Part shown: positions 6,287 through 41,688 of the stretch, in pieces
How the letters are laid out: the number at the start of each line of letters is the position of its first letter
Numbering within the stretch: the first letter of the stretch is position 1
DNA from: an uncultured Candidatus Saccharibacteria bacterium
GTDB taxonomy: Bacteria > Patescibacteriota > Minisyncoccia > Phycocordibacterales > Zambryskibacteraceae
Assembly: GCA_964357635.1 (NCBI GenBank)
Contig: CAYHLZ010000001.1
Span: forward strand, 44,917 to 108,916
Length of the DNA: 64,000 bases
Reading direction: 5' to 3'
Notes under the pieces: model-generated
Seen by the model: the letters and a program-made list of their open reading frames with translations, nothing else
Told to the model about the DNA's origin: nothing
Databases searched by the model: none
Made by a program: the position numbers and the translations under genes

Positions 6287-6862
6287 CTAAAAAGGGAGAG
6301 AGAAAGTAAGTTTGTGGTCCTTTGGTTTCTCCCAACCACTCACATCTAATTTAATCTCATTTAAAGCCCCACCTTCTTTAAAAACAAGTTTTTTATTAGT
6401 GAGCGCATATTCATAAAGTTCTTTGGTAAGTCTAACGTCTTCTATACAGTAAGTGCGTACCCTTTCAACGTCTCCCGCCTTCCACCAGTTTATCGCATCA
6501 GCGCCACCACCTAATTTATTTCTACCAAGAGTACCTTCGGCAAGTTGATCTAAGCGCATTCGGCGTCCATAAGAATCTTTTATTTCTTTCAAGATATCTA
6601 AGCTTCTTATTTTTGTTAAGTCTCCTGGGTAGTATTTGTTAAGTAGCGGGATGTCAAAATGGTCAGAATTGAATCCAATAAGCACATCCGCTCTCTCTAT
6701 AATTGGCCAAAGTTTTTTTAACTCCTCTTCTACATATGAAGAGTAAGAGTCTGTATCTGAATCATAGATAGCCACCAAGGCAATATCCAAGAGCGCGGGA
6801 TCATTTTTCCCTACATCAGAAAAAAAGTTCTTAGTCTCTATGTCAAAAACTATTTTACGCAT
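6287..6862 (-). CDS. RNase H-like DEDD-type 3'-5' exonuclease domain protein
   Basis: Motifs IVFDIETKNF (Exo I), FNSDHFDIPLL (Exo II), YCIEDVRLTKELY (Exo III, DEDDy type). Start overlaps stop of upstream hisS-like gene by 8 nt. Confidence 0.55.
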   Translation of the reverse strand: MRKIVFDIETKNFFSDVGKNDPALLDIALVAIYDSDTDSYSSYVEEELKKLWPIIERADVLIGFNSDHFDIPLLNKYYPGDLTKIRSLDILKEIKDSYGRRMRLDQLAEGTLGRNKLGGGADAINWWKAGDVERVRTYCIEDVRLTKELYEYALTNKKLVFKEGGALNEIKLDVSGWEKPKDHKLTFSLPF

Positions 6863-7619
6863 ATGGACCTAGTTTGTGTGTTTCAAGGAAGTCTCGAATA
6901 GTGACATCTCCCATACCAAAACCAACCGCACTTACTGCCGCCACGTCAAACATTTCCAGAAGATTGTCATATCTTCCACCCCCAGCAATAGCTCGGGTAT
7001 TTTCTTTGTTGGCATCAAATATTTCAAAGACCATTCCCGTGTAGTATGTCTGTCCTCTCGCTAGAGTTGAGTCAAAGACAAAATTAGGGCCTATTTCCTT
7101 GAAGTCATCTATGTTGGCATTGTTGATTCTTACTTCAAAATCTTCGTTTCTGGCTCCAAACCCTTTCATTACAGCGCAAGCAAGCGAAAGAATCTCTTTG
7201 TCTCCTTTTACCCCCTCTACACCCAAAAGGTCGCAATTTAGCTGCCAATGTTCTCGCCTTCTTCCTTTCTGCGGTCGTTCATAACGAAACAAATTTGGTA
7301 TAGAGTACCATCGTAATGGAAATTTTAGACTTTTTCTCCTGGCAGCTACCATACGGGCAAGGGTGGGGGTCATTTCTGGGCGTAATGTAACCGACCTGTC
7401 ACCTCTGTCAGTAAAGGTAAATGTTTGTTCGTTTATTATCTCCGCTCCTGATTTTTCAGAATAAATTTCGGTTGGCTCTAAAATTGAGGCGCCATATTCT
7501 ACGTATCCAAAGCTTTCCGAAACCTTTCTCCACGTGTTGAAGATATGGTTCTGGATAGCCATATCCTCAGGATATAAGTCCCTAACACCCTTGTAGGGTC
7601 CTGTATCAAGTTTTGACAT
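6855..7619 (-). CDS. Histidyl-tRNA synthetase-like minimal catalytic core (no anticodon-binding domain, shortened insertion region)
   Basis: Class II aaRS motif 2 FRYERPQKGRRREHWQ and HisRS motif 3 AIAGGGRYDNLLEMFD present. Protein is only 254 aa and ends right after the catalytic core. Confidence 0.7.
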   Translation of the reverse strand: MSKLDTGPYKGVRDLYPEDMAIQNHIFNTWRKVSESFGYVEYGASILEPTEIYSEKSGAEIINEQTFTFTDRGDRSVTLRPEMTPTLARMVAARRKSLKFPLRWYSIPNLFRYERPQKGRRREHWQLNCDLLGVEGVKGDKEILSLACAVMKGFGARNEDFEVRINNANIDDFKEIGPNFVFDSTLARGQTYYTGMVFEIFDANKENTRAIAGGGRYDNLLEMFDVAAVSAVGFGMGDVTIRDFLETHKLGPYA

Positions 7620-7626
7620 AGAAACA

Positions 7627-9435
7627 TTATACCGCCTTTCTCTGAGCTTTTGAACGTTCCTGCTGTGTCAAAAGAATTTTACGTAGACGCACAGCGGTTG
7701 GAGTGATTTCTATATATTCGTCCTCTCCCATAATCTCCATTGCCCGTTCAATATCAAGTTTGTATGCGGGAGTGAGATAAATACTTTCATCGGAGCCAGA
7801 GGCGCGCATATTGGAGAGTTGTTTTGCTTTTGTTGGGTTGACGTAAAGATCTTCACCCTTAGACGTATTACCTACAACTTGTCCGGCATAAATCTCATCG
7901 GCTGGTTCTATATACAAAACACCTCTATTCTGCAAATTATCAAGCGCAAATGCGAGTGCCTTACCGCTCTCCATAGATATCATTGAACCGCTCTTTTCAT
8001 GTTTCATTTCCCCCGCATACGGTTTGAACGCAATGAATCTGGATGAAAGAATACCAAGACCTTTAGTATCTATGACGAACTGATTACGATAGCCCAAAAG
8101 TCCTCTAGTCGGCGCCTCAAAAATAATACGGGTTTGTCCTTCAGTCGTTTTCATATCAACCATGATGGCTCTGCGCTCTGTTAGTTTTGAAATAACTGTA
8201 CTTGCCATATCTTCTGGCACGTCAACAGTAACTTCTTCAAATGGTTCTAGTCTTACGCCGTTTTCTTCTTTTTCCAAAACGTGAGGTTGTGAGACCTGGA
8301 GCTCAAATCCTTCTCGGCGCATATTTTCAAGGAGAATAGCTATGTGCAATTCACCTCTGCCATAAACTGTTAGAACCTCGCCAGCTGTAAAATTAACCTT
8401 GAGACCAACATTTACCTCAAGTTCTCTCTCTAGTCGCTCACGAATTTGGCGCCCTGTAACAAACTTGCCAACTCGTCCCGCGAAAGGTGAATCGTTAACA
8501 ACAAAGTTAAGAGAAATTGTGGGCTCATCTACAAGAATGGCGGGCATAGCCGGAATATTTTCACTACCCGTGATGGTATCTCCAATATAAATTTCAGGTA
8601 AACCGGCAAGCATACAGATATCTCCAGTGACTGCCTCACTTACTTCTTTTCTGGTTAACCCTTCAAAGGTGTAGAGCTTACTAACTTTACCCGCATAAGT
8701 TTCCCCATTTGGTTTTTTCACATAAACTTTTTGGCCATCCTTTAGGGTGCCTTCATAAATACGTGCGATAGCCAAACGTCCCAAGAAGTTATCGTAAGCT
8801 AAGTTAAAGGGTTGAGCACGAAGATTTTCAGGTTTACTTGTTTCCGCTTCTGTAAAAACTGGTGGCACGTGTTCTAAAATACAATCTAGTAGAGGGGTCA
8901 AATCTTTTGATTCATCAGTTAAGTTTTTCTTGGCGATACCTTCTCGACTTATGGAATAGACAGTGGGGAAGTCAATCTGCTCATTGTTGGCCCCAAGTTC
9001 TATAAAAAGTTCAAGCACTTCTTCATGTACCGCTTCCGGTCTGGCCGCTGGTTTATCAATTTTATTTATTACTACAATCGGTTTGAGGCCAAGCTCTAAA
9101 GATTTTTTCAAAACAAAACGAGTCTGTGGCATTGGACCCTCTTGGGCGTCTACCACTAGGAGCACTGTGTCTATAGAGCGTAAGACTCGTTCCACTTCGG
9201 AGCCGAAATCAGAGTGACCGGGCGTATCAACAATATTGATTTTAGTCTTTTTAAAGAAGACTGAAGTATTTTTTGCATAAATAGTAATACCGCGTTCTAG
9301 TTCAAGAGCGTTTGAGTCCATAGACACACCCTCGCTTGCAACCCCAGTTTGGCGCATAAGCGCATCTGTTAGTGTGGTCTTGCCGTGGTCAACGTGGGCG
9401 ATAATAGCTATGTTCCTTATTTCCATAAGGCGCAA
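7627..9435 (-). CDS. typA: Translational GTPase TypA/BipA
   Basis: G1 AHVDHGKTTL, DTPGHSDF, NKIDK; overall EF-G-like architecture of ~600 aa typical of BipA. Confidence 0.92.
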   Translation of the reverse strand: MRLMEIRNIAIIAHVDHGKTTLTDALMRQTGVASEGVSMDSNALELERGITIYAKNTSVFFKKTKINIVDTPGHSDFGSEVERVLRSIDTVLLVVDAQEGPMPQTRFVLKKSLELGLKPIVVINKIDKPAARPEAVHEEVLELFIELGANNEQIDFPTVYSISREGIAKKNLTDESKDLTPLLDCILEHVPPVFTEAETSKPENLRAQPFNLAYDNFLGRLAIARIYEGTLKDGQKVYVKKPNGETYAGKVSKLYTFEGLTRKEVSEAVTGDICMLAGLPEIYIGDTITGSENIPAMPAILVDEPTISLNFVVNDSPFAGRVGKFVTGRQIRERLERELEVNVGLKVNFTAGEVLTVYGRGELHIAILLENMRREGFELQVSQPHVLEKEENGVRLEPFEEVTVDVPEDMASTVISKLTERRAIMVDMKTTEGQTRIIFEAPTRGLLGYRNQFVIDTKGLGILSSRFIAFKPYAGEMKHEKSGSMISMESGKALAFALDNLQNRGVLYIEPADEIYAGQVVGNTSKGEDLYVNPTKAKQLSNMRASGSDESIYLTPAYKLDIERAMEIMGEDEYIEITPTAVRLRKILLTQQERSKAQRKAV

Positions 9436-10692: not shown

Positions 10693-11172
10693 TTAAGGGA
10701 GGAGTTCGTAGAGGTAGTCTGCGATAGACTCTGGCTCGTCTGAAGAATCAATATTTAAAAAGGTTACTTCTTTTGGCTCAATCTTGTAAAGATAGAGCTG
10801 ATGCTTTTTAAGTTCATCAAGTCTTTTTATTGGCCAGTTAAGCATAGAATTGTTTTCTGCTTTGTCTTTTATCAAGGCAAGTCCTTTATCGTACTCATTT
10901 CCTTCTGCAAGTATCGCCTTTCCTCTAATAGTTACTGCAATATATTCCGGACCTGAGCCAACAGAGAAGGCAACTCTCTCGTTGTTCATAATGTTCTGCG
11001 ACTTGCGTGTTCCGCTAGTTGTCAGAAAGAAAATGCCGAAATTGGCTCCGGCTGCATAGTAGACCGGAGAAACAAATGGTTGACCTTCTGTGTCTATGGT
11101 TGCCACCACTCCCACATCGTGAGCACGTAAGTACTCAAGGGCGTTTTGTTTTGCAATTTGTTTGGTAAGCAT
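10693..11172 (-). CDS. Pyridoxamine 5'-phosphate oxidase-like FMN-binding protein (general stress protein 26-like)
   Basis: Split-barrel PNPOx-like pattern LRAHDVGVVATIDTEGQPFVSPVYY...FLTTSGTRK. Confidence 0.6.
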   Translation of the reverse strand: MLTKQIAKQNALEYLRAHDVGVVATIDTEGQPFVSPVYYAAGANFGIFFLTTSGTRKSQNIMNNERVAFSVGSGPEYIAVTIRGKAILAEGNEYDKGLALIKDKAENNSMLNWPIKRLDELKKHQLYLYKIEPKEVTFLNIDSSDEPESIADYLYELLP

Positions 11173-11211
11173 AACCCCATACTAGCACTTTAATTTAACA
11201 AGAGTAAGATT

Positions 11212-11577
11212 ATGTGCATGGGACATTACTACGGAGACCATGTGCGTTCTCTTCTGGTCGCGGCAGCGGTACTTATGACTGTCACGACACCCTTTTTTAT
11301 TGACCTGATTCACAAACCGATATTCTTTGCAATTCTCGCGATGCTTGTTTTGGTTATCCTTAGCGGTTTGATAAACCCAAAACAGAGAGGACTTGTAGCC
11401 GTGACGACCATTACCTCAGCAGTTTCCTTTCTTGTTTTTGAATATTATGCGATCACTTCTTTTAAAGAGTTTGGTCTAAAGAATTTATTTTTCTGGGTTA
11501 ACGAGACCATCGCCCTACTTTGTCTTCTGGCAACCTATTTTGGTACCAAAAGTGTGCGTGGTCTGTCACAACAGTAA
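11212..11577 (+). CDS. Small integral membrane protein
   Basis: Three to four hydrophobic helices; no motif. Confidence 0.35.
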   Translation: MCMGHYYGDHVRSLLVAAAVLMTVTTPFFIDLIHKPIFFAILAMLVLVILSGLINPKQRGLVAVTTITSAVSFLVFEYYAITSFKEFGLKNLFFWVNETIALLCLLATYFGTKSVRGLSQQ

Positions 11578-11669
11578 TTGGACCGGTAAAGGGCTGTTAT
11601 AAGTCTTGCTATTTTTGAGAAATATAGTACAGTTGCTCTTTAAGAAGAACTAGAGTTTAAGCTTTAAAT

Positions 11670-12887
11670 ATGCCCACCGCCAATACAGTAGAGAAAGAGC
11701 TTGCTCGTGGAACAGGGCTCTCAATTATCAGTCTTATAGACTGTCTTATTGAGCGCGCGCAAGAAGTTCGCGCATCAGATATTCACATAGACCCACTTGC
11801 TGACAAGGTTCGTGTTAGGTTTCGTATTGATGGAGTGTTGCAAGATGTGTATTCTTTTCCAAAAAGTATTCATGCAGAAATAATTTCTCGCATTAAAGTT
11901 TTGGCACGCCTTCGCACCGACGAACATAGCGCAACGCAGGATGGTCGTCTTCGCCACGACCTTTCTGATAAGAAATTTGTTGATATTCGGGTTTCTATAG
12001 TTCCAACCTATCATGGGGAAAATTCTGTTTTACGCTTACTTTCAGACAAGGCCGAAAATTTTGATCTTCAAAGTCTTGGATTTAGTGAGGCAGATAGAAA
12101 AAAACTTCTTTCCGCTCTTAAAAAGCCGAACGGTATGATTCTTTGCACCGGACCCACTGGATCGGGTAAAACCACTACTCTTTATACAATGATAAAAATA
12201 CTGAATTCTCCTGAAGTTTCTATTATCACCATAGAAGATCCGATTGAATATGCTGTTTCAGATGTTGAACAGATTCAAGTTAATCCAAGAACAGGGCTTA
12301 CTTTCGCCAACGGACTCCGCTCAATCCTTAGACAGGACCCAAATATTATTATGGTTGGAGAGATTAGGGATGCCGAAACTGCCAATATTGCCGTTAACAC
12401 CGCGCTCACGGGGCACCTCTTGCTTTCAACTCTGCACACCAATGATGCTGCCACCACACTTCCAAGGCTTTTGGATATGGGTATAGAAACATATCTCGTC
12501 GCCTCAACGGTAAATATTATTATTGGTCAAAGGCTTGTAAGAAAAATATGTGAACATTGCAGAAAAGAGGCACCAGTTTCAGAAGCCTTGAGGGAAGATC
12601 TAAAAAATCACGATCTATTACGCCTCTTTGATAAAGATAGTGCACTCTATCATGGTGTCGGATGTGGTAATTGTAACAATAGTGGATATGCTGGCAGAAT
12701 TTGTATTAACGAAGTCTTGGTGGCCGACGATGAGATAAGAGAAGCTATTCTTCGTAAAGCCTCGGCTGGAGAACTGAAGAAGATTGCAATTAAAAACGGC
12801 ATGACCACCATGCTTGAAGATGGTTTTAAAAAAGCACAAGTAGGGGAAACTACATTAGAAGAAATTCTTAGAGTAATAAACGAATAA
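11670..12887 (+). CDS. pilB: Type IV pilus assembly ATPase (PilB/GspE family, short form)
   Basis: Walker A GPTGSGKTTT, Asp box IITIEDPIEY, Walker B/His box IIMVGEIRDAETA...LLLSTLHTND, C-terminal tetracysteine CEHC...GCGNC typical of GspE/PilB. Confidence 0.85.
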   Translation: MPTANTVEKELARGTGLSIISLIDCLIERAQEVRASDIHIDPLADKVRVRFRIDGVLQDVYSFPKSIHAEIISRIKVLARLRTDEHSATQDGRLRHDLSDKKFVDIRVSIVPTYHGENSVLRLLSDKAENFDLQSLGFSEADRKKLLSALKKPNGMILCTGPTGSGKTTTLYTMIKILNSPEVSIITIEDPIEYAVSDVEQIQVNPRTGLTFANGLRSILRQDPNIIMVGEIRDAETANIAVNTALTGHLLLSTLHTNDAATTLPRLLDMGIETYLVASTVNIIIGQRLVRKICEHCRKEAPVSEALREDLKNHDLLRLFDKDSALYHGVGCGNCNNSGYAGRICINEVLVADDEIREAILRKASAGELKKIAIKNGMTTMLEDGFKKAQVGETTLEEILRVINE

Positions 12888-13999
12888 TGTCTGATAAGAA
12901 ACCCGAAGAAGAGAGCGGTCTGTTGAAAAACTTTTTAAAAAATTTCGGAGCTGGCAGACTTTCAATAACTGAACAGGCTTTTTTTGCCAAGCGGCTATCT
13001 TTCCTTACCAATGCAGGCATCTCACTTTTGGAGGCACTTCATATGATTCGTGAGCAAACTCTTTCTAAGAGTTACATCAGAGTGTTGGATGCCGTTATTG
13101 TGGATGTTTCAAGTGGTCGTTCACTTTCCGACAGTTTGGGTCGATTTGAAAATGCTTTCGGAGATTTTGCTAGAAGTATTATCTCTGTCGGAGAACAGAC
13201 CGGTGCTTTAAGCGAAAACCTTTCATACCTTGCTGAAGAACTTAAAAAAAGACAACTTTTAAGAAAAAAGATTGTGAGCGCTCTGGTTTACCCAATATTT
13301 ATAACTATTGCCACCATAGGCATTACCAGTCTTTTAATTGTTTTTATATTTCCAAAGATTATGCCAATCTTTTTGAGTCTGAATGTTGAACTACCATTCT
13401 CCACCAAGATTTTAATCCTTGCTTCAACCTTTTTAGGCAACTACGGACTTTGGCTTATCTTGGGAATAATTTTGTTTGTAATTGCTTTGCGAATTGTTTT
13501 TAAAAAGAGTGAAAAGTTTCACTTCTGGTACGACAAGGCATTTATGAAAGCACCGCTTATCGGTCCCATGATTCAGAACTATAACTTGGCGAATATTAGC
13601 CGAACCCTTAGCCTACTTTTAAACGGTGGCATGACTCTATCGGAGGCCTTGCCCATCACTTCCAAGTCAACAGCCAGTCTTGTTTACAAATATGAACTAG
13701 ACAAACTGACCCAAGTGGCCAACAGAGGAGAGAAAATCTCTTCTCACATGAAAAATTATAGAAAACTTTTTCCAGATATTCTTTCTCAAATCATATCGGT
13801 GGGAGAGAGAAGTGGCAATCTCTCGGAGACCTTAAGTTATCTTTCTGATATGTATGAGAGCGAAGTGGAGGAGTCAACAAAAAATCTATCAAACATGATA
13901 GAGCCGGTACTTATGGTGGTGATGGGGATTATGGTTGGATTTGTTGCAATTTCCATAATTACGCCAATATATAGTCTTACCCAAGGGCTTCAGAGGTAG
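12887..13999 (+). CDS. pilC: Type IV pilus inner-membrane platform protein (PilC/GspF family)
   Basis: Duplicated GspF-type domain architecture, three TM segments, immediately downstream of pilB with 1-nt overlap. Confidence 0.85.
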   Translation: MSDKKPEEESGLLKNFLKNFGAGRLSITEQAFFAKRLSFLTNAGISLLEALHMIREQTLSKSYIRVLDAVIVDVSSGRSLSDSLGRFENAFGDFARSIISVGEQTGALSENLSYLAEELKKRQLLRKKIVSALVYPIFITIATIGITSLLIVFIFPKIMPIFLSLNVELPFSTKILILASTFLGNYGLWLILGIILFVIALRIVFKKSEKFHFWYDKAFMKAPLIGPMIQNYNLANISRTLSLLLNGGMTLSEALPITSKSTASLVYKYELDKLTQVANRGEKISSHMKNYRKLFPDILSQIISVGERSGNLSETLSYLSDMYESEVEESTKNLSNMIEPVLMVVMGIMVGFVAISIITPIYSLTQGLQR

Positions 14000-14013
14000 T
14001 TCCAAGCTTAAAA

Positions 14014-14490
14014 ATGTTCTGCGACAACCAAACAAAGAAACAGGCCGGGATGACCCTTATTGAGATTCTGGTTGTTCTTGGTCTCTTATCTCTTGTTGGC
14101 GGATTCTCTATCGTCATGGGGGTGGATAGTTATAGGAGCCAAATTTTCCGTTCCGATCGCGACATTCTTGTGAGTGCTCTACACAGAGCTCGTGCTCTTG
14201 CCATGAGTAACGTCTGTTTCGGTGAATCTTGCACCGATGGCCTTCATCATGGGGTGCGCATTGAACCTGGGCGGTTCATCATTTTTCAAGGGAGAGACTT
14301 TAATAATTCAGATGAGCACAACGAAATTATAGAAATGGCTGGCGGAGCTCAAGTAAGCGGAATCACCGAAGTTGTATTTCATCCGCTTTCGGGCGAGCCG
14401 AGCACCACTGGCGATATTATTATTACCGATTCTATAAGCATTTCCACTACAACCATAGGAGCGGAAGGGCAAATTTTTTGGACTCGCTAA
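14014..14490 (+). CDS. Prepilin-type N-terminal cleavage/methylation domain protein (minor pilin)
   Basis: Class III signal QAG|MTLIEILVVLGLLSL with Glu at +5. Confidence 0.7.
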   Translation: MFCDNQTKKQAGMTLIEILVVLGLLSLVGGFSIVMGVDSYRSQIFRSDRDILVSALHRARALAMSNVCFGESCTDGLHHGVRIEPGRFIIFQGRDFNNSDEHNEIIEMAGGAQVSGITEVVFHPLSGEPSTTGDIIITDSISISTTTIGAEGQIFWTR

Positions 14491-14494
14491 TAAA

Positions 14495-16030
14495 ATGAAC
14501 AAAGGATTTTCCACTCTTGAGATAATAATAGCCATGGGTATCATGGTTGCCGTACTCGCATCCGTAGTTTTGGTATCTTTTGGTAGTCAGATGTCTCTTG
14601 TCGGAAGTGAGACAAGTGGTGAAGCACTTAAACGTGCTCAAGCAACTGTTGAGAGGGTACAAGCGCTTGCTCGTAAGGACTTTAACCTTGTAAATGCAAC
14701 CACCTCTGGAGATGGTTTTTACACCGATACTATTTCGGTTGAATTTATGCCGGATTTTCTGACCAAGCAGGTCACAGTTGGTGTTCTATGGCAAAGTGAG
14801 CGCGGACTGGCTCAAAAAGTGGAATTAAAAACTCTGGTAACTGATTTCTCAAGTTCGGTTGGCGGTTCAACTTGCAATTCCTCTCTTTCTGGTGACTGGG
14901 AGAATCCAAGTATCACCACTTACGCGATGAGTGCTGGTGAGCTTTTGCCGTCAAACATATCTGGCAATTTTCCAGTAACCGACGTTGATGCGTATAGAGG
15001 TCGGCTTTATGTTACTGCAGGCCCAACAAGTGCCCCTGCCGACAAAACTCTTTTTATTTTTGATATCTCCGACAGAAGAAGGGCACCTGTCTATATTGGT
15101 GGTACTGACAATGCGGGAAGTACTAGAAGCGGTCTAAATGCCGTAAAAGTGGCTGGAGACTATGCCTATGTTGCTAACGCCCATGATGCAAACTTTAATT
15201 CCTGTTCTGTTGGTCCGAGTTGTTCTCAACTTCAGATTATTGATGTCAACGCACCATCCGATTCGTGGAATCCGGCAATTGTAAATTTGAAATTTGCCAC
15301 ATCTAGCAGTCCGCGAGTGAATGCCTTCGGTGGCGGTGGTCAAGCGGTTGGCAAAAGTATTTTCTATAAAGACGGATATATTTATCTCGGTTTGTCGAAA
15401 ACAGGGAGCGGCCCAGAGTTTCATGTGGTGGATGTTCATAATCCTACAGCTCCGTTTTGGGTGGGTAGCTGGCCCGCTTCTGGCACAAGCTCGCTTCAGC
15501 CGATAAATGGTATTTTCGTCCGTAATGGTTACGCTTATTTAGCTCACCCCACAGACAGTTCAAATACTTTACGAGAACAACTTACAGTGCTAAATGTAGT
15601 AAACCCTCAAAGTTCAACTAGAGTAAGTGGCTTCCATGCTCCCGATAATGAAGGTAATGGGAAAAGTTTGGCTATTGTCGGTGACACAATGTACCTTGGT
15701 AGAACTGTTACAACTTTTTCGGGCAATCCAGAATTTTACGTACTTGATATATCTAATCCGACAGCCATCCCAACCACCTCAAGAGGCAACCATCTGTTAA
15801 ACAACAGCTCAAATGATCTCATTATTCGAGATTCTCTCGCATTTATTCTGACCAACAATAATATTGAGATTAGAAAAATAGATAACTTTCTAAACATCAC
15901 GCCATACTCGGTTCTTTCTTTGTCGGGGATTGGTGTTGGTAGGGCTCTCGACTGCGAAGGTAATCATATTTATGTAGGTTCGGCAGATTCTTCTGGAAAT
16001 GGTTTTATAAGTGTTGTAACCGCACCATGA
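14495..16030 (+). CDS. Modular type IV pilin with LVIVD-repeat (beta-propeller) module
   Basis: Prepilin signal KG|FSTLEIIIAMGIM. Body has repeated blocks ending in (I/V)(L/V)D(V/I)SNP-type motifs (IFDISDRRRAP, IIDVNAPSD, VVDVHNPTAP, VLNVVNPQSS, VLDISNPTA) matching LVIVD repeats. Confidence 0.6.
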   Translation: MNKGFSTLEIIIAMGIMVAVLASVVLVSFGSQMSLVGSETSGEALKRAQATVERVQALARKDFNLVNATTSGDGFYTDTISVEFMPDFLTKQVTVGVLWQSERGLAQKVELKTLVTDFSSSVGGSTCNSSLSGDWENPSITTYAMSAGELLPSNISGNFPVTDVDAYRGRLYVTAGPTSAPADKTLFIFDISDRRRAPVYIGGTDNAGSTRSGLNAVKVAGDYAYVANAHDANFNSCSVGPSCSQLQIIDVNAPSDSWNPAIVNLKFATSSSPRVNAFGGGGQAVGKSIFYKDGYIYLGLSKTGSGPEFHVVDVHNPTAPFWVGSWPASGTSSLQPINGIFVRNGYAYLAHPTDSSNTLREQLTVLNVVNPQSSTRVSGFHAPDNEGNGKSLAIVGDTMYLGRTVTTFSGNPEFYVLDISNPTAIPTTSRGNHLLNNSSNDLIIRDSLAFILTNNNIEIRKIDNFLNITPYSVLSLSGIGVGRALDCEGNHIYVGSADSSGNGFISVVTAP

Positions 16031-16515
16031 AAAAAAACGGCTTCACTCTCATTGAAACTGTTATTTATCTCGGCCTATTTGCCATTATTATGACCGGCGT
16101 TCTTACTGCAGTCTACAGCGTTAGTCAGACTGGCAGTCGGAATCAAGCAAGAGCGATGATTCAGGAAGAGGGGACATATCTTTTGGGGAAAATTGACTGG
16201 GTTCTCTCGGGTGTTAAAACTATAAATCTCCCAATTGGTTCTGGAGATGTCCTTCAAGTTAACACTTTCAATGGCAATGCTATTGAGGTGGGTCTGTCTG
16301 GCTTAAATATATATTTGTCACGCTTACCTAATTCTCCCGAGATACTTAACAATACAAACGTAGAAATAAGCGAGCTTGAATTTATTCACACCGAAGTTTC
16401 TGGTGATGGCATTAACCCAGAAAGCGTTGAGGTTAATATCATCATAACCACTAGGACACAAGATGGATTTCTTTTTTCTCAGAAGTTTTCTACGGTTAAG
16501 TATTTGCACAAATAA
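16027..16515 (+). CDS. Prepilin-type minor pilin
   Basis: NG|FTLIETVIYLGLFAI class III signal; 4-nt overlap with upstream gene. Confidence 0.7.
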   Translation: MKKNGFTLIETVIYLGLFAIIMTGVLTAVYSVSQTGSRNQARAMIQEEGTYLLGKIDWVLSGVKTINLPIGSGDVLQVNTFNGNAIEVGLSGLNIYLSRLPNSPEILNNTNVEISELEFIHTEVSGDGINPESVEVNIIITTRTQDGFLFSQKFSTVKYLHK

Positions 16516-16518
16516 AAA

Positions 16519-18495
16519 ATGCAAGACCTTTCTCCAATTTTAATAACCGGAAAAGATAGAGGCTTTATTGCCCTCATGTCTGTTTTAATTATATCTGCCG
16601 TTGTTCTCACCATCACTGTCACTGCTGGCGCCTCAAGTTTCTACGCCAGATCAAACATGCTTCAGAACGAATTCAAAAGGCAGTCCCTGTCGCTTGCTGA
16701 AGCATGTATTAACGCGGCACTTCTTAATTTGAAGGAAAATTATAATTATGACCCATCTGACGATCGCGTTCTTGTCGGCGACGATTCTTGTTATATTGAA
16801 AGCGTTTCTTCTCCTGATCAGGAATTTAAGAGGGAGATTAGAACTCGAGCCGAGGTGAACGGTTCATTTAGCAATGTCTTAACTGTCGCCGTCGTTGAGG
16901 ATCCAAACCAACCCCCACTAGCGCCACCGGCAGCTTGTTCACTCTCGGTTAACCCATCTCCCATTAATTCTGGCGCTTCTGCTTGGCTTTCTTGGGCAAC
17001 TTCCACGAATGCCACCTCTCTTTCTATAGACAATGGAATTGGTTCGGTTTCTCCATCTTCAAGTGGAGAAGAACTTGTTAGTCCACAAACAAGCATTACC
17101 TACACTGGCACCGCCGAAGGTCCCGGAGGTGCAAGCACTTGTTCCGTTTCTCTTGAGGTTACGCCACCCCCAGATTGTGCTGATTTAGTTATGATGCTTG
17201 ATCGCACGACGAATTTTTCTTCTTTAGATCTTGCTAATGAGCGATTAGCTACCAAGGGCATACTTGAAATGTATGAAGAGACCAACAGTCCTTATCCCAA
17301 GGTTGGTATTGGTCGTTTTGGGGACGGAAACGACGGGGGAGTTGAGGCCGAGATTACCGTCGCAACACTCTCAACCAGAAATATTGTTCCAACAAGTGTT
17401 GGCACAAATAACACGTGGCTTGTGGCTCCAATTGGTGCAACTAAGACAACAGTAGTTTCTCAAGTGGACAATGATACAAGTTACATCTATTCCTCCATAC
17501 AAAATGCTTCACAAACTTTTGTTTTTCCGGGAGCGAGAGTTCCGACAGACGCGGTAATTGAAGCAGTGGCACTAAGAGTTGTGGCACGAACGATAAGTGG
17601 CGAAGACGCAACAATAAAACTTGTGGCTGAGAATGGCACAGAACTTGACGAAGGAGCACCAGTTGCACTTTCAAGTATCTATAATACTTATCTTCGCCGC
17701 ATGACCACCAATCCATTCACCGGTCTACCGTGGACACTTTCTGATGTAAACAACTGGACCACTAGGTTTGGTGTTGTGAAAACCAGTTCAGAGGGCGTCG
17801 CCAGAGTTACCCACGCGTATCTCGTTGTTGAGTATAGGACTGAGATAGGACAACTCAGCAGTGTCTACGGAGATGACGATATTGGAAACGATGGTGACGG
17901 AGATCTCTACGATGCCGTTGAAGAGGCGACAAACCCCGAGCCGTTTGCTGTTGGATTAAGTCTTGCCGATATTATAAATACCGGAGCTTCGGAGCTTAAC
18001 GGGCCAAGACATAGTAGCGATAGAGGAAAGGTACTTCTTGTGGTCTCAAACGGAGATCCCAATGAGCCGACCATTGGTGCTGTTGAGGCAGCTCTAGATT
18101 CTGCCGATGCCGCAAAACTCGCGGGGGTAGAAATTTTCAGCATTTTCTTTGGTTCTGATCGTTCTGGTCTTTCTGGACAAGAACTTCTCGCCGCTCTTTC
18201 GGGTGGACAAGTATCTTCTGCAGATCTTCCGAGTCATTTCCATTTTGGACCCACACATCAGCCAGGCTCCGATGATAATTTTGAGAACACCCCAGATGGT
18301 TATCTTGCAGAAAATAATGATAGCGATCACTTCTTCATTGCCACTAGCTCTCTAAACTTACTAGGTATTTTTGAGACAGTTGGGAAGGTTGCTTGCCCAG
18401 CGGCCGGCACTCCGCCCCCACCTCCACCGCCCCCACCTCCACCGCCCCCATCACCTGTACCCAACATATCTATTACCTCTTGGGATGAAGTTTAG
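16519..18495 (+). CDS. Large GspK-like pilin-family protein with vWA-like module and C-terminal poly-proline tract
   Basis: N-terminal RG|FIALMSVLIISAVVL (pilin-like hydrophobic segment lacking Glu5, as in GspK-type tip pseudopilins). vWA-like strands DLVMMLDRTTNFS, VLLVVSNGDPNE, EIFSIFFGSD. PPPPPPPPPPPPPPSPVP near C-terminus. Confidence 0.55.
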   Translation: MQDLSPILITGKDRGFIALMSVLIISAVVLTITVTAGASSFYARSNMLQNEFKRQSLSLAEACINAALLNLKENYNYDPSDDRVLVGDDSCYIESVSSPDQEFKREIRTRAEVNGSFSNVLTVAVVEDPNQPPLAPPAACSLSVNPSPINSGASAWLSWATSTNATSLSIDNGIGSVSPSSSGEELVSPQTSITYTGTAEGPGGASTCSVSLEVTPPPDCADLVMMLDRTTNFSSLDLANERLATKGILEMYEETNSPYPKVGIGRFGDGNDGGVEAEITVATLSTRNIVPTSVGTNNTWLVAPIGATKTTVVSQVDNDTSYIYSSIQNASQTFVFPGARVPTDAVIEAVALRVVARTISGEDATIKLVAENGTELDEGAPVALSSIYNTYLRRMTTNPFTGLPWTLSDVNNWTTRFGVVKTSSEGVARVTHAYLVVEYRTEIGQLSSVYGDDDIGNDGDGDLYDAVEEATNPEPFAVGLSLADIINTGASELNGPRHSSDRGKVLLVVSNGDPNEPTIGAVEAALDSADAAKLAGVEIFSIFFGSDRSGLSGQELLAALSGGQVSSADLPSHFHFGPTHQPGSDDNFENTPDGYLAENNDSDHFFIATSSLNLLGIFETVGKVACPAAGTPPPPPPPPPPPPPSPVPNISITSWDEV

Positions 18496-20065: not shown

Positions 20066-20191
20066 AAGATTCTCCTCGTTTTTAGATGTAGGACTATGTT
20101 TACTATGCTCTCAAAGAGCGAAACTTACCTCGTTATACACCACATGCGTTGAATTGTTAAGTAAACCCAGCCTTATTAATAATTTAATGGC

Positions 20192-20209
20192 TGTAAAGTT
20201 GTCTTTACA
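20192..20209. promoter_or_regulatory. Palindromic operator-like site TGTAAAG-N4-CTTTACA upstream of XRE regulator
   Basis: Perfect 7-bp inverted arms 34 bp upstream of the 20243 start; second copy at 20827..20844. Confidence 0.45.
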
Positions 20210-20242
20210 TTAAGCTTTGTTTTTTCTATACTGAAGAGAGTC

Positions 20243-20449
20243 ATGAGCGAAAAGATTAAAAACGAAGTAAACAGACTTAGGACGGAAGCTGGAGTTACTC
20301 AAGAAGAATTAGCCGGGAAAGTGTGCGTTAGTAGACAAACAATTATTGCCCTTGAGAAAGGGAACTACACACCCTCTGTTTTACTGGCTATTAGGATAGC
20401 AAGCTTTTTCAAGATGCCAGTAGAGAAAATTTTTAAAATATCAATATGA
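20243..20449 (+). CDS. XRE-family helix-turn-helix transcriptional regulator
   Basis: Cro/C1-type HTH TQEELAGKVCVSRQTIIALEKGNYTPSVLLAIRIA. Confidence 0.75.
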   Translation: MSEKIKNEVNRLRTEAGVTQEELAGKVCVSRQTIIALEKGNYTPSVLLAIRIASFFKMPVEKIFKISI

Positions 20450-20808
20450 AAAATAATCTAACACACATCATTCTAGCTATAGTGCTTATAGTTTTACTCG
20501 TCCTACTTTCTGATGCTTTCATGTTTTGGATGCCACCACTTTTTGCGATGCTCATAATCCTAATGGTTGCCGTGGTTATGTGCGTCTGGGCCGGGTTTGT
20601 CATGAAGGAGGGGGCGGGGGACGAACGAGAAAAAATTCATCGCATGGATGCCGGCAGGATTGCTTATCTTTCTGGGAGTGCTGTGCTCACCATAGCATTG
20701 GTAGTTCAAGGCATAAGACATGAAATAGACCCATGGATTACTCTGGCTCTTGGCGTGATGGTGGTGTCCAAGCTTGTTGCACGTATCTATTTTGAAAAAT
20801 ATAGATAA
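20446..20808 (+). CDS. Small membrane protein co-transcribed with XRE regulator
   Basis: 4-nt start/stop overlap with the HTH gene; three TM helices. Confidence 0.45.
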   Translation: MKNNLTHIILAIVLIVLLVLLSDAFMFWMPPLFAMLIILMVAVVMCVWAGFVMKEGAGDEREKIHRMDAGRIAYLSGSAVLTIALVVQGIRHEIDPWITLALGVMVVSKLVARIYFEKYR

Positions 20809-20826
20809 CAGATATCCACAGGCTTA

Positions 20827-20844
20827 TGTAAAGTCTACTTTACA
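20827..20844. promoter_or_regulatory. Second TGTAAAG-N4-CTTTACA palindrome, upstream of thioredoxin-like/DsbD-like genes
   Basis: Identical 7-bp arms as the site at 20192..20209. Confidence 0.45.
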
Positions 20845-20899
20845 TTACATTCTATTTTTTATATAATCAAAATGTTAAGCATTACTAACATAACTAATT

Positions 20900-21373
20900 A
20901 TGAATAACACCAAACCAATTTTTATTATTCTGGCAATCCTTGTTGTTGCGGGCCTTGGTATTTATGGTTTATCAAAACCAGCCACAGAGGAAAAAGATGT
21001 TGCCATGGAAAAAGAAAAGTTGAGTGAGGTAGCAGCAACAGAAGAGCCAGAGACAATAATGAAGAAAGGCTCTTACGAGACATACAGTTCTGAGAAATTG
21101 TCTCTAGCTTCTACCAATAAGGTTGTCTTATTTTTTAGAGCCTCTTGGTGTCCAACGTGTCGAGCTCTTGATTCAGATATCCGCTCCAATCTTGAAAGTA
21201 TTCCCGAGAACCTAATAATCCTTGACGTTGATTACGATAACTCCACCGCCTTAAAACAGAAATATGGGATTACTCGCCAACACACACTAGTTCAGGTAGA
21301 TGCCTCTGGAGTGGCACTTAACAAATGGACTGGTTCGCCCACACTCTTAAATCTTATTTCAAAAGTAAAATAG
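20900..21373 (+). CDS. Membrane-anchored thioredoxin-like protein
   Basis: N-terminal TM then WCPTC active-site motif. Confidence 0.65.
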   Translation: MNNTKPIFIILAILVVAGLGIYGLSKPATEEKDVAMEKEKLSEVAATEEPETIMKKGSYETYSSEKLSLASTNKVVLFFRASWCPTCRALDSDIRSNLESIPENLIILDVDYDNSTALKQKYGITRQHTLVQVDASGVALNKWTGSPTLLNLISKVK

Positions 21374-31193: not shown

Positions 31194-32522
31194 CTAGTTG
31201 CCTCGTAGGAAATCTTGCCAACCCATCTCTCGCTTACCAGCGGGGGTAACGCGGACTGGGACAAACTTACCATCTTTTATCTCGGCATCTTTGACTACTA
31301 ATCTAATTTCTTTCCCACTCTTGTTCCTGAAGAACATGTAGGCCGTTGGCCAAGTACTATACGCCAAGACTTTTCTCAAATTTTTCTCTGCAGATTCGTT
31401 TAGGTCAAGAAGTCCGTCTTCTTTTTTTATTAGTTTGGTAAAACTTACTTTCTTCTCATCCTGTGGTATCTCTTTCACTTCTCCCTCAATCCATTTTGGA
31501 AGTAGAACCCCGAGTATTCTACCGCCAGCACGAGCAAGCTTTTCTTCTACGACAGCATAGTGGTCTGGCCAAGGAGTTATTGGAACTCGTGCCTGCGCCA
31601 ATATTGGTCCGTGGTCCACTTTCTCATCCATTTTAATTATCGTTACCCCCGCTTCTTCTTCTGCAAGAATTGTTTCTTGAATAGGTGAGGCGCCCCGCAA
31701 CTTTGGCAGAAGTGAGGGGTGGACATTGAGCGCACCATATTTTGGAAGAGAGAGAATCTCTTTCGGCAAGATTTTACCGAATGATGCTACCACATAAACA
31801 TCTGCATCTAACTTTTTTAATTTATCTGGAGATGGAATATCTTTTATAGAACTTATATTAAGCACCGGAGAAAGACCAGCCACTTCAAGCTCCTCCAGAA
31901 CATATTTTGAAAATTGAGAACTACCGAAGAAGACAAACTTAACCACCGCTTTTAGCGGGGTCCCGCCAACGGCGGTGACCGCTTTCTTCGGTGGGACATC
32001 TTGGACATTTTCTGCATTATCAATGAAAAGAACGCCATTTAGATGGTCTATCTCGTGCTGGAAAATCTGTGCCAGAAGTTCTGATGCGCCTCGCTCAATA
32101 AGTTTCCCTGTTTCGTTGTAGGCTCTCAAAGTTACTTTATCAGCTCTTTTTACCTGCCCGTAGAGCCAACGTATTGAGAGACAGCCTTCTTCCAACTTCT
32201 CTTTTTTCCTAGAAGTTTTAATTATTTCTGGGTTGATAAATACCAAATCTTTCGTTGTCTGAGGCAGTTTTGGCACTGGTCCGACATTTAAGTTTCTTTT
32301 TTTTGTTAACATCAAAACATCGCCTCGGACGATAAAGAGTCTCAGACTCTCACCAATCTGTGGCGCAGCGAGCGCCACTCCGTCTTCTTCGGCATGGAGC
32401 GATGTGTGCATCTTCTCTAGAAGGCCTTTAATCTTTTTTCCACCAATTTCTTTTAGGGGCACACTCTTAGCCACCTTTCTCAATACAGGCGCATCTTTTT
32501 GTAATATTTCTGTTTTTGTCAT
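31194..32522 (-). CDS. Fused peptide deformylase / methionyl-tRNA formyltransferase
   Basis: N-terminal Def motifs GVALAAPQIG, EGCLSI, HEIDHLNG. C-terminal Fmt motifs VVASFGKILP, NVHPSLLPKLRG, GVTIIKMDEKVDHGPIL plus Fmt C-terminal domain. Confidence 0.8.
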   Translation of the reverse strand: MTKTEILQKDAPVLRKVAKSVPLKEIGGKKIKGLLEKMHTSLHAEEDGVALAAPQIGESLRLFIVRGDVLMLTKKRNLNVGPVPKLPQTTKDLVFINPEIIKTSRKKEKLEEGCLSIRWLYGQVKRADKVTLRAYNETGKLIERGASELLAQIFQHEIDHLNGVLFIDNAENVQDVPPKKAVTAVGGTPLKAVVKFVFFGSSQFSKYVLEELEVAGLSPVLNISSIKDIPSPDKLKKLDADVYVVASFGKILPKEILSLPKYGALNVHPSLLPKLRGASPIQETILAEEEAGVTIIKMDEKVDHGPILAQARVPITPWPDHYAVVEEKLARAGGRILGVLLPKWIEGEVKEIPQDEKKVSFTKLIKKEDGLLDLNESAEKNLRKVLAYSTWPTAYMFFRNKSGKEIRLVVKDAEIKDGKFVPVRVTPAGKREMGWQDFLRGN

Positions 32523-34106: not shown

Positions 34107-35309
<1,203 letters not shown>

Positions 35310-37928: not shown

Positions 37929-40490
37929 ATGAAAGATAAAAACAGCGAAAAAATTGTGGTGAAGGGTGCCCGTACCCACAATCTCAAAAACATTACTTTA
38001 GAGATGCCAAGGAATGCCATGGTGGTTTTCACCGGACTTTCTGGTTCTGGTAAGTCTTCGCTTGCCTTTGACACCATCTTTGCCGAGGGACAGAGGCGTT
38101 ACGTAGAAAGTCTTTCAAGTTACGCGCGACAGTTCTTGCGACAAATGCAGAAACCTGATGTTGACGAGATTACAGGTCTTTCTCCCGCTATCTCCATAGA
38201 CCAGAAAAGTCGTTCCAACAACCCACGCTCAACCGTCGCCACTATCACAGAGATTTATGATTACTTGCGTATTCTTTACGCCCGTATTGGCAGACCGCAT
38301 TGTCTAGTTTGTGGCAATGAGATAAAAAAGCTTTCCAACGAAGAGATAAAAACATTTGTGTTAGAAAAAATTACCGAAAAGACCGGCACTTCCAAACAGG
38401 TAGAAATTTTTTCCCCTATAGTGCGTGGTAGAAAGGGGGAGTACTACCAACTTCTCTACGATCTTCTAGGCAGGGGCTATAGCGAAGTGCTTGTGGACGG
38501 TGTTAGAAAGTCGCTTCGCGAAAGAGTTGTTTTAACCAAGACCCAGAAACATGAAATATCTGTCTTGGTAGACTCTATCGGTATCAATGAGTTTAAACTT
38601 GATGAAAAGAATGCTCTAGAGCGCCTGTCAGAAGCGATAGAAAAGGCGATTCTTGAGTCAGACGGACTCTTGGTGGCAAAGTTTAAGGATGAAGAATTCC
38701 TAATGTCTGCAAAATGGGCTTGTCCCAAGGACGGATTCTCGTTTCCAGAAATAGAGCCAAGACTTTTTTCCTTCAACTCTCCATATGGAGCATGCCCCAC
38801 TTGTAACGGTTTGGGTACCAAGTACCTTTTCGGTAGTGAACCGTGTGAGGATTGTCTCGGTAACCGTCTTCGTAAAGAAGCTCTCCATGTCTTGGTGGGG
38901 AACAAAAATATTGTTGAACTCACCGCGCTCTCTATAAAGGATGCTGATGAATTTTTCAAAAAACTGAAACTAACCTTGCGCGAAAAAAATGTCTCAAAAG
39001 TAGTGACAAAAGAAATTGAAACCAGACTCTCGTTTATGCTAGACATCGGTATTGAGTACTTAACTCTTGACCGTCGGGCCCATACTCTCTCGGGCGGGGA
39101 AGCGCAGAGAATCAGACTTGCAAGTCAGCTTGGCTCGGGACTCGTAGGCGCTCTCTATGTGCTAGACGAGCCGACCATTGGCCTACACTCCAGAGACAAT
39201 AATCGTCTTATAAAAACTCTTTTAAATCTTCGCGACCTTGGCAACACCATTATTGTCGTAGAACACGATGAAGAAACTATTTTTGCTTCTGACTATTTGG
39301 TTGATATTGGTCCGGGGGCAGGGGTGCATGGAGGTAAGGTGGTAGCTAGCGGGTATCTTGAGGATCTTCTTTTTGGTTCACCCCGCCACGGCGGGGCAGG
39401 GAAAAATGACAGCAAGTCCCTTACACTTTCATATCTTCGTGGTGAGAAAAAGATTGAAATACCGGAAGAACGCAGAGACAAGGAGAAGGGCAAAATCTCT
39501 ATTCGCGCGGGCAAAATTTTCAACATAAAGCATCTCAATGTAGACATTCCTCTTGGAAGGCTTATCGCAGTTACAGGTGTCTCGGGTTCTGGTAAATCTT
39601 CTTTTATCTATGAGATATTACACAAAAATCTTCAGGCAAGACTTGATAGGCGCTACAGGAATGCCCAAACTTATAACTGCCAATCTTTCAGCGGTTCTGA
39701 ATACTTGGGACGCGCTGTATTGATAGACCAGTCTCCCATTGGTCGCACCCCACGCTCAAACCCAGCAACTTATACTGGCGCCTTCACCTTCATTCGCGAA
39801 CTCTTTGCCGAAACTTCCGAGGCCAGGGCTCGTGGTTGGAAGGCCAATAGATTTTCTTTCAATGTTAAGGGTGGTAGGTGCGAGACTTGTCAGGGTAACG
39901 GTACTATAGAAGTGGAAATGCATTTCCTGCCCACTGTCTATGTTCCTTGTGATGTCTGTGGCAGTAAAAGATTTATGAAAGAGACTCTGGAGGTAAAATA
40001 TAAAAAGAAAAGTATTTTTGATGTGCTTGAGATGACTGTTGAGGAGGCACTCAAATTTTTTGAAGACATTCCGGCGATATATGACAGACTGAAGAGCATG
40101 AACGATGTTGGTTTGGGTTATCTTGCTTTGGGGCAGTCAGCCACCACGCTTTCTGGTGGAGAAGCACAGAGGGTTAAAATTGCTTCAGAACTCTATCGTC
40201 CGCACTTGGAGAAAACTATCTACCTCTTGGATGAGCCAACCATCGGGCTTCACTACGAAGATGTTAAAAAGTTGATTGAGATTCTCCAGAAATTGGTAGA
40301 CAAGGGTAACACGGTAGTGGTTATTGAACACAATCTAGATTTTGTAAAAAGTACCGACTATATCCTAGACATTGGTCCTGATGCAGGAGAGCGTGGTGGC
40401 GAGCTTGTCGCCAAAGGCACTCCAGAAGAGGTTGCCAACAGCGATACTCACACAGGCAAGTATCTCCGCAAAGTTCTGCGTAAGAAATAA
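37929..40490 (+). CDS. uvrA: Excinuclease ABC subunit A
   Basis: Two ABC ATPase modules ([12 protein letters not shown]; [12 protein letters not shown]), two LSGGEAQR signature motifs, zinc fingers. Confidence 0.95.
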
Positions 40491-40491
40491 A

Positions 40492-41688
40492 ATGAAAAAA
40501 TCAGATTTAGGCAAATTTAATCTTCCAGAAAATCCTGGTGTTTATTTTTTCCGAGGTAAAAAAGGGAAAATTCTCTATATCGGCAAGGCAACCAGTCTCA
40601 AGGATAGGGTCAAAAGTTATTTTGCTCGCGACATCTTGATGACGAGAAGTCCTTTGATAGCCAAAATGCTTGAAGAGGCAGAGAAAATCACTTTTACCAA
40701 GACAGATTCAGTTATTGAGGCGCTACTTCTTGAGGCAGGTGAGATAAAGAAGCATCAACCACCATATAATTCTAAAGAAAAAGATGACAAGAGTTACAAC
40801 TATGTTGTTATTACCAAAGAAGCGTTTCCTCGGGTACTTCTCGAGCGAGGACGAAACCTAGAAGCAGATGACCGAAAATTTAAGGCCATCTTTGGTCCAT
40901 TTCCCCATGGCAGTGAATTGAAAGAAGCGTTAAAGATTGTCCGCAAACTTTTTCCATATAGAGATAAATGTAAAATCGGACAACCAAGGCCATGTTTCAA
41001 TGCACAAATCGGTCTCTGTCCCGGAGTCTGTAGCGGAAATATTTCAAAAACAGATTATGGAAAGATTATCCGCCACCTCATCTTGTTTTTTGACGGCAAG
41101 AAAAAGGCGCTTGTAAGCGCTCTTCGTCGTGAGATGAAAATACTTGCCAAGAGTCAGAAGTTTGAATCTGCGGAGATGGTTAAAAGGCAAATCTTTGCTT
41201 TAGAACACATTCAAGACATCGCACTTATAAAGAAAGGAATTTCTAGAGACCAAAATTCTTTCAGAATTGAAGCCTATGATGTCGCCCACACCTCAGGCAC
41301 TGATGTAGTTTCTGTAATGACCGTAGTGGAAGACGGTGAGCTTGCCAAAAATGAGTATAGGAAATTTAAAATCCACACGGATAAAAATGACGATGTGGCA
41401 AATCTTAAGGAGACACTTACGAGAAGGTTTAAACACTTGGAGTGGCGAAGGCCAAACCTCATAGTTGTTGATGGTGGAGCGGGGCAGATAAATGCTGCCA
41501 AGAGAATTATAAAATCTCTAGGGCACGATATCGCTGTTGCTTCAGTAGTTAAAGACGAGAGACACAGGGCTCGAGAGATTCTTGGGGAAAAAGAATACCA
41601 TAGAGAAATACTTCTAGCCAACTCGGAGGCGCATCGCTTCGCCATCGGCTACCACAGGCGTCTACGTGGAAAAAGCTTCAAAATATAA
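40492..41688 (+). CDS. uvrC: Excinuclease ABC subunit C (short form lacking C-terminal HhH)
   Basis: GIY-YIG PGVYFFRGKKGKILYIGKATSLKDRVKSYF, UVR-like segment, RNase H-like endonuclease region IEAYDVAHTSGTD. ~400 aa. Confidence 0.85.
   Translation: MKKSDLGKFNLPENPGVYFFRGKKGKILYIGKATSLKDRVKSYFARDILMTRSPLIAKMLEEAEKITFTKTDSVIEALLLEAGEIKKHQPPYNSKEKDDKSYNYVVITKEAFPRVLLERGRNLEADDRKFKAIFGPFPHGSELKEALKIVRKLFPYRDKCKIGQPRPCFNAQIGLCPGVCSGNISKTDYGKIIRHLILFFDGKKKALVSALRREMKILAKSQKFESAEMVKRQIFALEHIQDIALIKKGISRDQNSFRIEAYDVAHTSGTDVVSVMTVVEDGELAKNEYRKFKIHTDKNDDVANLKETLTRRFKHLEWRRPNLIVVDGGAGQINAAKRIIKSLGHDIAVASVVKDERHRAREILGEKEYHREILLANSEAHRFAIGYHRRLRGKSFKI

Follow-up and report, generated by a model that had tools for sequence, protein, structure and literature searches.

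We analysed a stretch of 64,000 nucleotides (the window), positions 44,917 to 108,916 of the forward strand of contig CAYHLZ010000001.1 (assembly GCA_964357635.1), which is deposited as an uncultured Candidatus Saccharibacteria bacterium and is placed by GTDB in the Zambryskibacteraceae. On its reverse strand lies a gene of the histidyl-tRNA synthetase (HisRS) family, called hisS here, which starts with ATG, ends with TAA and encodes a protein of 254 amino acids (aa). This protein corresponds to the class II catalytic core of HisRS and lacks both the helical insertion domain and the C-terminal anticodon-binding domain (ABD). Upstream, the gene of the translational GTPase BipA ends 7 nt before the hisS start, and the two genes probably share one operon. 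Downstream, an exonuclease gene starts within the hisS stop, which leaves no space for an ABD in the window. The coordinates of the gene, its motifs and its neighbours are given in Table 1.

Domain assignments were obtained from profile and structure comparisons. PF13393 (tRNA-synt_His) covered the 254-aa protein in two separate stretches (2.3e-38), and PF03129 (HGTP_anticodon, the class IIa ABD) gave no match in it. The NCBIfam model for hisS, TIGR00442, matched at profile positions 3-164 and over one further stretch, with a score of 245.6 bits that is under the equivalog cutoff of 286.75 because domains are missing; the score with the hisZ model TIGR00443 was lower (162.1 bits, cutoff 271.65). 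The closest solved relatives by sequence were the trypanosomal (T. brucei and T. cruzi, 3hri and 3hrk) and Thermoplasma acidophilum (1wu7) enzymes, with E values of about 1e-58 to 1e-61. In the alignment with T. brucei HisRS (3hri, E 5e-61), residues 1-170 of the query matched residues 24-192 and residues 176-252 matched residues 280-356; because the alignment jumps from 192 to 280, about 87 residues of the insertion domain are absent compared with 3hri, and the chain ends at the expected start of the linker to the C-terminal domain. An AlphaFold2 model of the protein had a mean pLDDT of 70.5 and a pTM of 0.74, with a confident β-sheet core, and in a fold search it matched HisRS catalytic domains with a TM-score normalised to the query (TMq) of 0.70-0.74, the HisZ structure ranking 50th. 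The original prediction, made from the sequence of the window, was of a minimal HisRS-like protein without ABD and insertion domain whose open reading frame (ORF) stops right after the catalytic core and overlaps the exonuclease start; the ORF itself, the Pfam results and the 3hri alignment bear this out, the overlap being 8 nt (ATGCGTAA).

Residue invariance was scored over 79 Paceibacteria sequences covering the four architectures described below, with E. coli HisRS as the numbering reference. Fifty-seven of the 254 columns were invariant in all 79 sequences regardless of architecture. Among them are the counterparts of E. coli E83, T85, R113, E115, Q118, R121, R123, Q127, R259 and Y263/Y264, and those of G285-G286-R287-D289, the Y288 equivalent being F in one sequence. 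In ASILEPTEIY, which we take to be class II motif 1 and the dimer interface, A44, S45, L47, E48 and Y53 were invariant (79/79). In the segment whose DRGD matches the tripeptide of the cross-subunit G-1 pocket, D71, G73, R75, R80, E82 and T84 were invariant, E82 and T84 aligning to E. coli E83 and T85. The pocket dipeptide is G73-D74 in the 254-aa protein; position 74 is D, E or G within every architecture class, and this variation is therefore not peculiar to minimal forms. R112, E114, Q117, R120, R122 and Q126 of motif 2 correspond to E. coli R113, E115, Q118, R121, R123 and Q127, and were invariant in all classes. The motif 2 loop reads ERPQKGR, the same as in E. coli and unlike the EAITRGR of T. 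brucei HisRS, which is G-1-independent (PMC9976931); this points to the canonical G-1:C73 identity set.

At the deletion junction, the helix that precedes the HisA strand is gone together with the insertion domain, and the region is shorter by 43-76 aa than in full-length orthologues. R188, G189, Y192 and Y193 of the HisA motif correspond to E. coli R259, G260, Y263 and Y264 and were invariant. Among the sequences displayed, HisA covaries with the insertion domain, with RGQT/A in insertion-less forms and RGFD in most insertion-containing ones. GGGRYDNL, which had been predicted to be motif 3 at about 90 residues from motif 2, is indeed separated from it by 86 residues. It aligns to E. coli G285-D289, which we take to be the HisRS-specific histidine-binding HisB motif, and class II motif 3 is the later segment AVGFGMGDVTIRDFL. 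G214, G215, R216 and D218 of HisB were invariant in all four classes, with Y217 replaced by F in one sequence; in motif 3, G233 and G237 were invariant, and R242, the equivalent of E. coli R311, was R or K in most sequences. The ORF finishes 5 residues past the FLETHKL block. In the complex of Thermus thermophilus HisRS with its tRNA, Glu114 touches A76 and is essential for aminoacylation, and an R122A mutant keeps 15% of the activity (PMC4357726); the equivalents of both residues were invariant in all 79 sequences. In conclusion, all predicted catalytic residues and nearly all residues predicted to contact the acceptor end are kept in every architecture class.

Table 1. The minimal hisS gene, its motifs and its neighbours (positions in the window; residues of the 254-aa protein).
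Feature	Sequence, residues or size	Position	Strand	Basis
Minimal hisS: HisRS catalytic core without insertion domain and ABD	254 aa	6855..7619	(-)	ORF, PF13393, TIGR00442, 3hri alignment, positional orthology
Putative motif 1 / dimer-interface region	ASILEPTEIY, aa 44-53	7461..7490	(-)	
Cross-subunit G-1 pocket segment, with DRGD	FTDRGDRSVTLRPEMT, aa 69-84	7368..7415	(-)	Pocket residues from PMC4357726
Class II motif 2 and loop	FRYERPQKGRRREHWQ, aa 111-126	7242..7289	(-)	
Deletion junction	INNANIDDFKEIGPNFVFD, aa 165-183	7071..7127	(-)	Alignment with full-length orthologues and E. coli
HisA motif	LARGQTYYTG, aa 186-195	7035..7064	(-)	
HisB motif	GGGRYDNL, aa 213-220	6960..6983	(-)	Aligns to E. 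coli G285-D289
Class II motif 3	AVGFGMGDVTIRDFL, aa 231-245	6885..6929	(-)	
C-terminal truncation point	FLETHKLGPYA, then stop	6858..6890	(-)	
Overlap of hisS stop and exonuclease ATG	ATGCGTAA, 8 nt	6855..6862	(-)	
Exonuclease, RNase_H_2 / DEDD-like, conserved downstream partner of hisS	191 aa	6287..6862	(-)	PF13482, 2.6e-9
bipA/typA translational GTPase		7627..9435	(-)	PF00009, PF21018 and others

The same 254-aa ORF, with the same neighbours, was present on three contigs from three independent assemblies of groundwater metagenomes. Homologues at 74-92% identity numbered at least 120 in a search of 5.8 billion proteins; they measured 253-261 aa except one of 288 aa. Such recurrence goes well beyond coincidence. 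Among the matches listed, all those with a name came from metagenome-assembled genomes of Patescibacteria, Parcubacteria or Zambryskibacteria; the proteins were often called 'ATP phosphoribosyltransferase regulatory subunit' by NCBI, and 'histidyl-tRNA synthetase' in other sources. The stop codon is TAA in the 254-aa gene, so UGA recoding or readthrough is not involved; TAA is used by 17/25 minimal forms.

The gene was then placed among its relatives by synteny, with one genome per GTDB species. The best 80 Paceibacteria loci came from 80 different assemblies, with one copy per locus. In 77 of them the gene that directly follows the HisRS-family gene is the same exonuclease (RNase_H_2) gene; the remaining three had no exonuclease match in the locus sequence examined. 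A DsbA gene was usually found further downstream, and a BipA match often upstream of the HisRS-family gene. The HisRS-family genes at these 80 loci are positional orthologues, full-length and reduced alike, and this synteny is what decides the identity of the 254-aa gene. Four architectures occur among them: full length (about 410-425 aa, 36/80 loci), insertion domain lost and ABD kept (about 355-365 aa, 11/80), insertion domain kept and ABD lost (about 300-317 aa, 11/80), and both domains lost (253-270 aa, 22/80 species, to which the three contigs that carry the window's own ORF are added). Of the representatives tested, those of the ABD-containing classes had PF03129 and those of the ABD-less classes did not. 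Conservation of the truncated form in relatives, which the original prediction had proposed to check, is seen both in the 22 species representatives and in the homologues of similar length. Among 1.84 billion proteins, the nearest representatives of 50%-identity clusters were mostly HisRS of 410-440 aa, at 55-62% identity.

In a neighbour-joining tree of the shared core, ABD-less proteins formed one clade inside full-length HisRS (bootstrap 94/200). The main clade of proteins that lost both domains was recovered in 171/200 replicates, and the subclade of the 254-aa protein in 182/200; two other both-lost sequences clustered with insertion-keeping ABD-less proteins (167/200), and a group of all insertion-less forms was never obtained (0/200). 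The ABD-less proteins displayed (n=15) all terminate 4-12 residues past the FLETHxL block, where full-length forms run on as 'LLPEY(K/R)STT...' into PF03129. One insertion-containing ABD-less protein (locus L021) terminates in HKLGPYA, exactly as the 254-aa protein does. The ABD was probably lost in one clade, once or at most a few times; because the 94/200 support is weak, this count comes mainly from the shared truncation point. The insertion domain, to judge from the tree, appears to have been lost repeatedly, at least three times independently. At two related loci an intact ABD is cut off from the core, by an in-frame TAA at L047 (1400-1713) and by a frameshift that places an ABD of ~95 aa in the +1 frame at L085 (3120-4192); these lesions could be early stages of domain loss, split enzymes or assembly errors. 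Outside this set, a HisRS of 322 aa (P0203) is insertion-less and keeps its ABD; it looks Ala/Arg/Gly-rich, unlike the Paceibacteria proteins, and may represent an independent loss of the insertion domain outside the Paceibacteria clade.

The 254-aa core is under strong purifying selection. Among orthologues of this length the nonsynonymous divergence dN was 0.07-0.19 and the synonymous divergence dS was saturated; the ratio ω was 0.03-0.09 in the few pairs for which it could be computed, most pairs being dS-saturated. The minimal clade was ~12-15% farther from deep full-length relatives than the other classes.

We propose, with a probability of roughly 0.6, that the 254-aa protein is a functional and probably the sole HisRS of its host, and that it would recognise only the acceptor end of tRNA-His. 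By its position the gene is the orthologue of the ordinary hisS of Paceibacteria (Parcubacteria, Candidate Phyla Radiation, CPR), cut by domain loss to the class II catalytic core. Such a core would still dimerise, activate histidine with ATP and pass it to A76 of tRNA-His. The tRNA would be chosen only via its acceptor end (G-1:C73, G1 and the CCA end), read through the motif 2 loop and through the G-1 pocket shared across the subunits, and the anticodon would remain untouched; the loss of affinity may be tolerated by a slow-growing organism with a reduced genome, or offset by other changes. Properties of known enzymes are consistent with this proposal, as HisRS efficiently charges mini- and microhelices that carry G-1:C73, and the anticodon contributes only weakly to identity in E. 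coli and goes unrecognised by Aeropyrum pernix HisRS (PMC9976931; PMC4357726). The genome sequence covered is ~83 kb, that is, the window and extensions of ~19 kb, of a genome of perhaps roughly 0.7 Mb, judging from one related chromosome of 682 kb. No second HisRS was found in these ~83 kb or in 1.4 Mb of relatives' loci, and no genome supplied more than one of the 80 best loci. Of the three readings that the original prediction had offered, a sole HisRS working without anticodon recognition is the best supported, the word 'sole' being drawn from those ~83 kb.

Several observations weigh against this proposal. The isolated catalytic domain of the E. coli enzyme has only ~0.6% of the aminoacylation efficiency of the full-length protein (Augustine & Francklyn 1997, cited in PMC4357726), and in other work its activity did not rise above background (PMC7308279). 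In T. thermophilus the insertion domain helps to clamp the acceptor stem (PMC4357726), and the loss of both domains therefore strips most of the known tRNA-binding surface. T. thermophilus Arg115 contacts G1 (PMC4357726), and its equivalent is not invariant: minimal forms have R, K or Q there, and 8 of the 11 forms that lack only the insertion domain have A. In the AlphaFold2 model, which was computed for a monomer from a shallow alignment, confidence was low at residues 1-18, 44-83 and 111-122, the last of these being the motif 2 loop. Finally, a tRNA-His gene was not found in the window, in 87 loci or in the two extensions.

On a broader scale, we give even odds to the idea that a whole Paceibacteria clade translates with a homodimeric HisRS of 254-264 aa as its only histidine charger, which would use an acceptor-stem 'operational code' with neither anticodon reading nor an insertion clamp. 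If it is the sole HisRS, the protein would be, to our knowledge, the smallest natural stand-alone aminoacyl-tRNA synthetase. A gene for queuine tRNA-ribosyltransferase (Tgt, PF01702, 1.7e-139) is present in the window at 34113-35309 (+). Tgt modifies G34 of the tRNAs for His, Asn, Asp and Tyr, so the tRNA-His anticodon is probably still modified although the 254-aa HisRS could no longer read it.

Other explanations were weighed against this acceptor-end-only HisRS. The name given by NCBI would make the protein HisZ, the regulatory subunit of a short-form ATP phosphoribosyltransferase (HisG), and the original prediction also listed a HisZ-like regulator. HisZ is a HisRS paralogue that accompanies hisG and is not known to act in aminoacylation; it shares with the 254-aa protein a HisRS-like core without ABD, and TIGR00443 does give 162 bits in addition to the database name of many members. 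This score is nevertheless far below the hisZ cutoff and below the hisS score, the catalytic residues are all kept and invariant, as are nearly all those for the tRNA end, and the gene sits at the hisS locus and groups inside hisS orthologues. Moreover, E. coli HisG, D, C, B, H, A, F and I, used as tblastn queries, had no match at E <= 0.01 in 1.42 Mb (the window and the loci of relatives), HisZ comes only 50th in the fold search, and HisZ proteins, as far as is known, retain the insertion domain that is absent here. We regard a HisZ identity as very improbable. Still less credible, to the point of being negligible, is an artefact or decaying pseudogene produced by a frameshift, an assembly error or a recent truncation. 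Relatives with single lesions do exist (L047, L085), and the original prediction had named a frameshift or sequencing error restoring a longer ORF as grounds for rejection. Such an error is excluded by the identical ORF in three assemblies, by the conserved homologue lengths and by the absence of ABD-like coding downstream in any frame; the sharing of the both-lost architecture by 22 species representatives and an ω of about 0.03-0.09 also speak against decay.

Two further explanations accept a functional core and differ from a sole acceptor-end HisRS in where the rest of the work is done. In one of them, an unrelated full-length HisRS, laterally acquired, is encoded elsewhere, and the core is an auxiliary histidine-activating or histidine-sensing enzyme that, for example, makes His-AMP or Ap4A, aminoacylates something other than tRNA, or acts as a regulator. 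ABD-less synthetase paralogues with non-canonical roles are indeed known: besides HisZ, EpmA/PoxA (from LysRS) and GluQRS/YadB (from GluRS) keep a core without the anticodon module. These are extra copies with new substrates beside a canonical enzyme, whereas the 254-aa gene is itself the hisS orthologue. Its place at the hisS locus also speaks against the stand-alone catalytic paralogue that had been envisaged. Synthetase duplication is in addition rare in CPR genomes, and each of the 80 genomes is represented only once among the 80 best loci. An auxiliary role would agree with the very poor tRNA charging by the E. coli core alone (PMC7308279; PMC4357726), and coverage of the genome to only ~83 kb leaves room for another synthetase. 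On the other hand, the ABD-less clade shows no variation at the positions of T. thermophilus Glu114 and Arg122 and of E. coli Q118, and the invariance of residues that contact A76 and the acceptor argues against pure amino-acid activation, which would not need them; no marked rate acceleration was seen either. We consider an auxiliary role unlikely. In the other explanation, the enzyme is split, and an ABD or another tRNA-binding module is encoded separately and acts in trans. L047 and L085 illustrate how core and ABD can fall into separate frames. A custom ABD hidden Markov model, with which every ABD-containing gene scores E <= 1e-22, found no ABD in the window, in its ~19 kb of extensions or in the flanking sequence of any locus that has lost both domains, and the start of the exonuclease within the hisS stop leaves it no room there. 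A database search with the ABD profile returned short proteins only, and the four that were inspected all sit at a hisS locus or at a contig end, none of them being a free-standing gene elsewhere. A split enzyme thus seems quite improbable, more so than an auxiliary role.

The architecture of the 254-aa protein is new, but the enzyme as such is a known one, and we do not see in it a novel type of system. With canonical HisRS (class IIa, TIGR00442) it shares motifs 2 and 3, HisA and HisB, all the predicted catalytic residues, the motif 2 loop of E. coli, the hisS locus of sister lineages and the fold of the catalytic domain; it differs by its 254 aa compared with about 410-425 aa in full-length orthologues, by the lack of PF03129, of the helical insertion domain and of the helix before the HisA strand, and by its score below the TIGR00442 cutoff. 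It also resembles the engineered N-terminal catalytic fragment of E. coli HisRS, an ABD-less core that can aminoacylate tRNA-His via the acceptor end (PMC7308279; PMC4357726). The fragment is artificial, still has its insertion domain and shows only the ~0.6% efficiency given above (PMC4357726), whereas the 254-aa form is natural, occurs in many species, is under purifying selection and has lost the insertion domain too. No description of an ABD-less or insertion-less HisRS in CPR bacteria turned up in the literature, of which our coverage was incomplete.

These features bear on the origin of tRNA recognition. Work with deletions and 'urzymes' has argued that synthetase cores reading the acceptor stem preceded anticodon recognition. 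A natural, long-lived and selected HisRS core would be a living and directly testable example of such cores and, if it is the sole HisRS, nature's equivalent of the engineered catalytic fragments on which arguments for an acceptor-stem 'operational code' have relied. The four architectures at one orthologous locus provide a series in which the contribution of each tRNA-binding domain could be measured, and a compact, anticodon-blind HisRS could serve genetic-code engineering. There are also consequences for annotation: the HisZ name would wrongly suggest a capacity for histidine biosynthesis in CPR genomes, and scores under the cutoff of the hisS model could bias completeness estimates or marker sets that use this model.

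The pairing of hisS with the exonuclease gene in 77/80 loci, where the two usually overlap or abut, suggests a functional link, possibly in tRNA end processing. Among minimal-form loci, an overlap of the same class as the 8-nt one in the window is the commonest arrangement. The exonuclease ORF had weaker matches to the PolB-exo and PolA-exo families, and a PDB sequence search gave no convincing solved relative.

Other shortened proteins are encoded in the same genome. Just right of the window end (L090) are genes for a LeuRS of 716 aa and an AlaRS of 541 aa, at 10939-13089 and 20090-20918 of that sequence. Typical bacterial LeuRS and AlaRS have about 860 and about 875 aa; domain trimming of synthetases may therefore be genome-wide. 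In the window itself, YchF (273 aa, 61245-62066, (+)), UvrC (438 aa, 40372-41688, (+)) and UvrA (853 aa, 37929-40490, (+)) look shorter than the usual bacterial versions, which would fit a general domain reduction. A 442-aa ORF at 31194-32522 (-) fuses peptide deformylase (PF01327, aa 5-173) to methionyl-tRNA formyltransferase; its C-terminal Fmt domain matches profile positions 2-49 of 100 only and looks shortened.

Two tRNA-Ala genes, with anticodons TGC (46764-46839, (-)) and GGC (46922-46995, (+)), are divergent and 82 nt apart. A cluster resembling type IV pilus or type II secretion system (T2SS) genes occupies 11670-18495 (+) and includes a T2SSE ATPase, a T2SSF platform protein, an N_methyl pilin-like protein and large proteins without Pfam match, as assigned from the precomputed annotation of an identical locus (L002).

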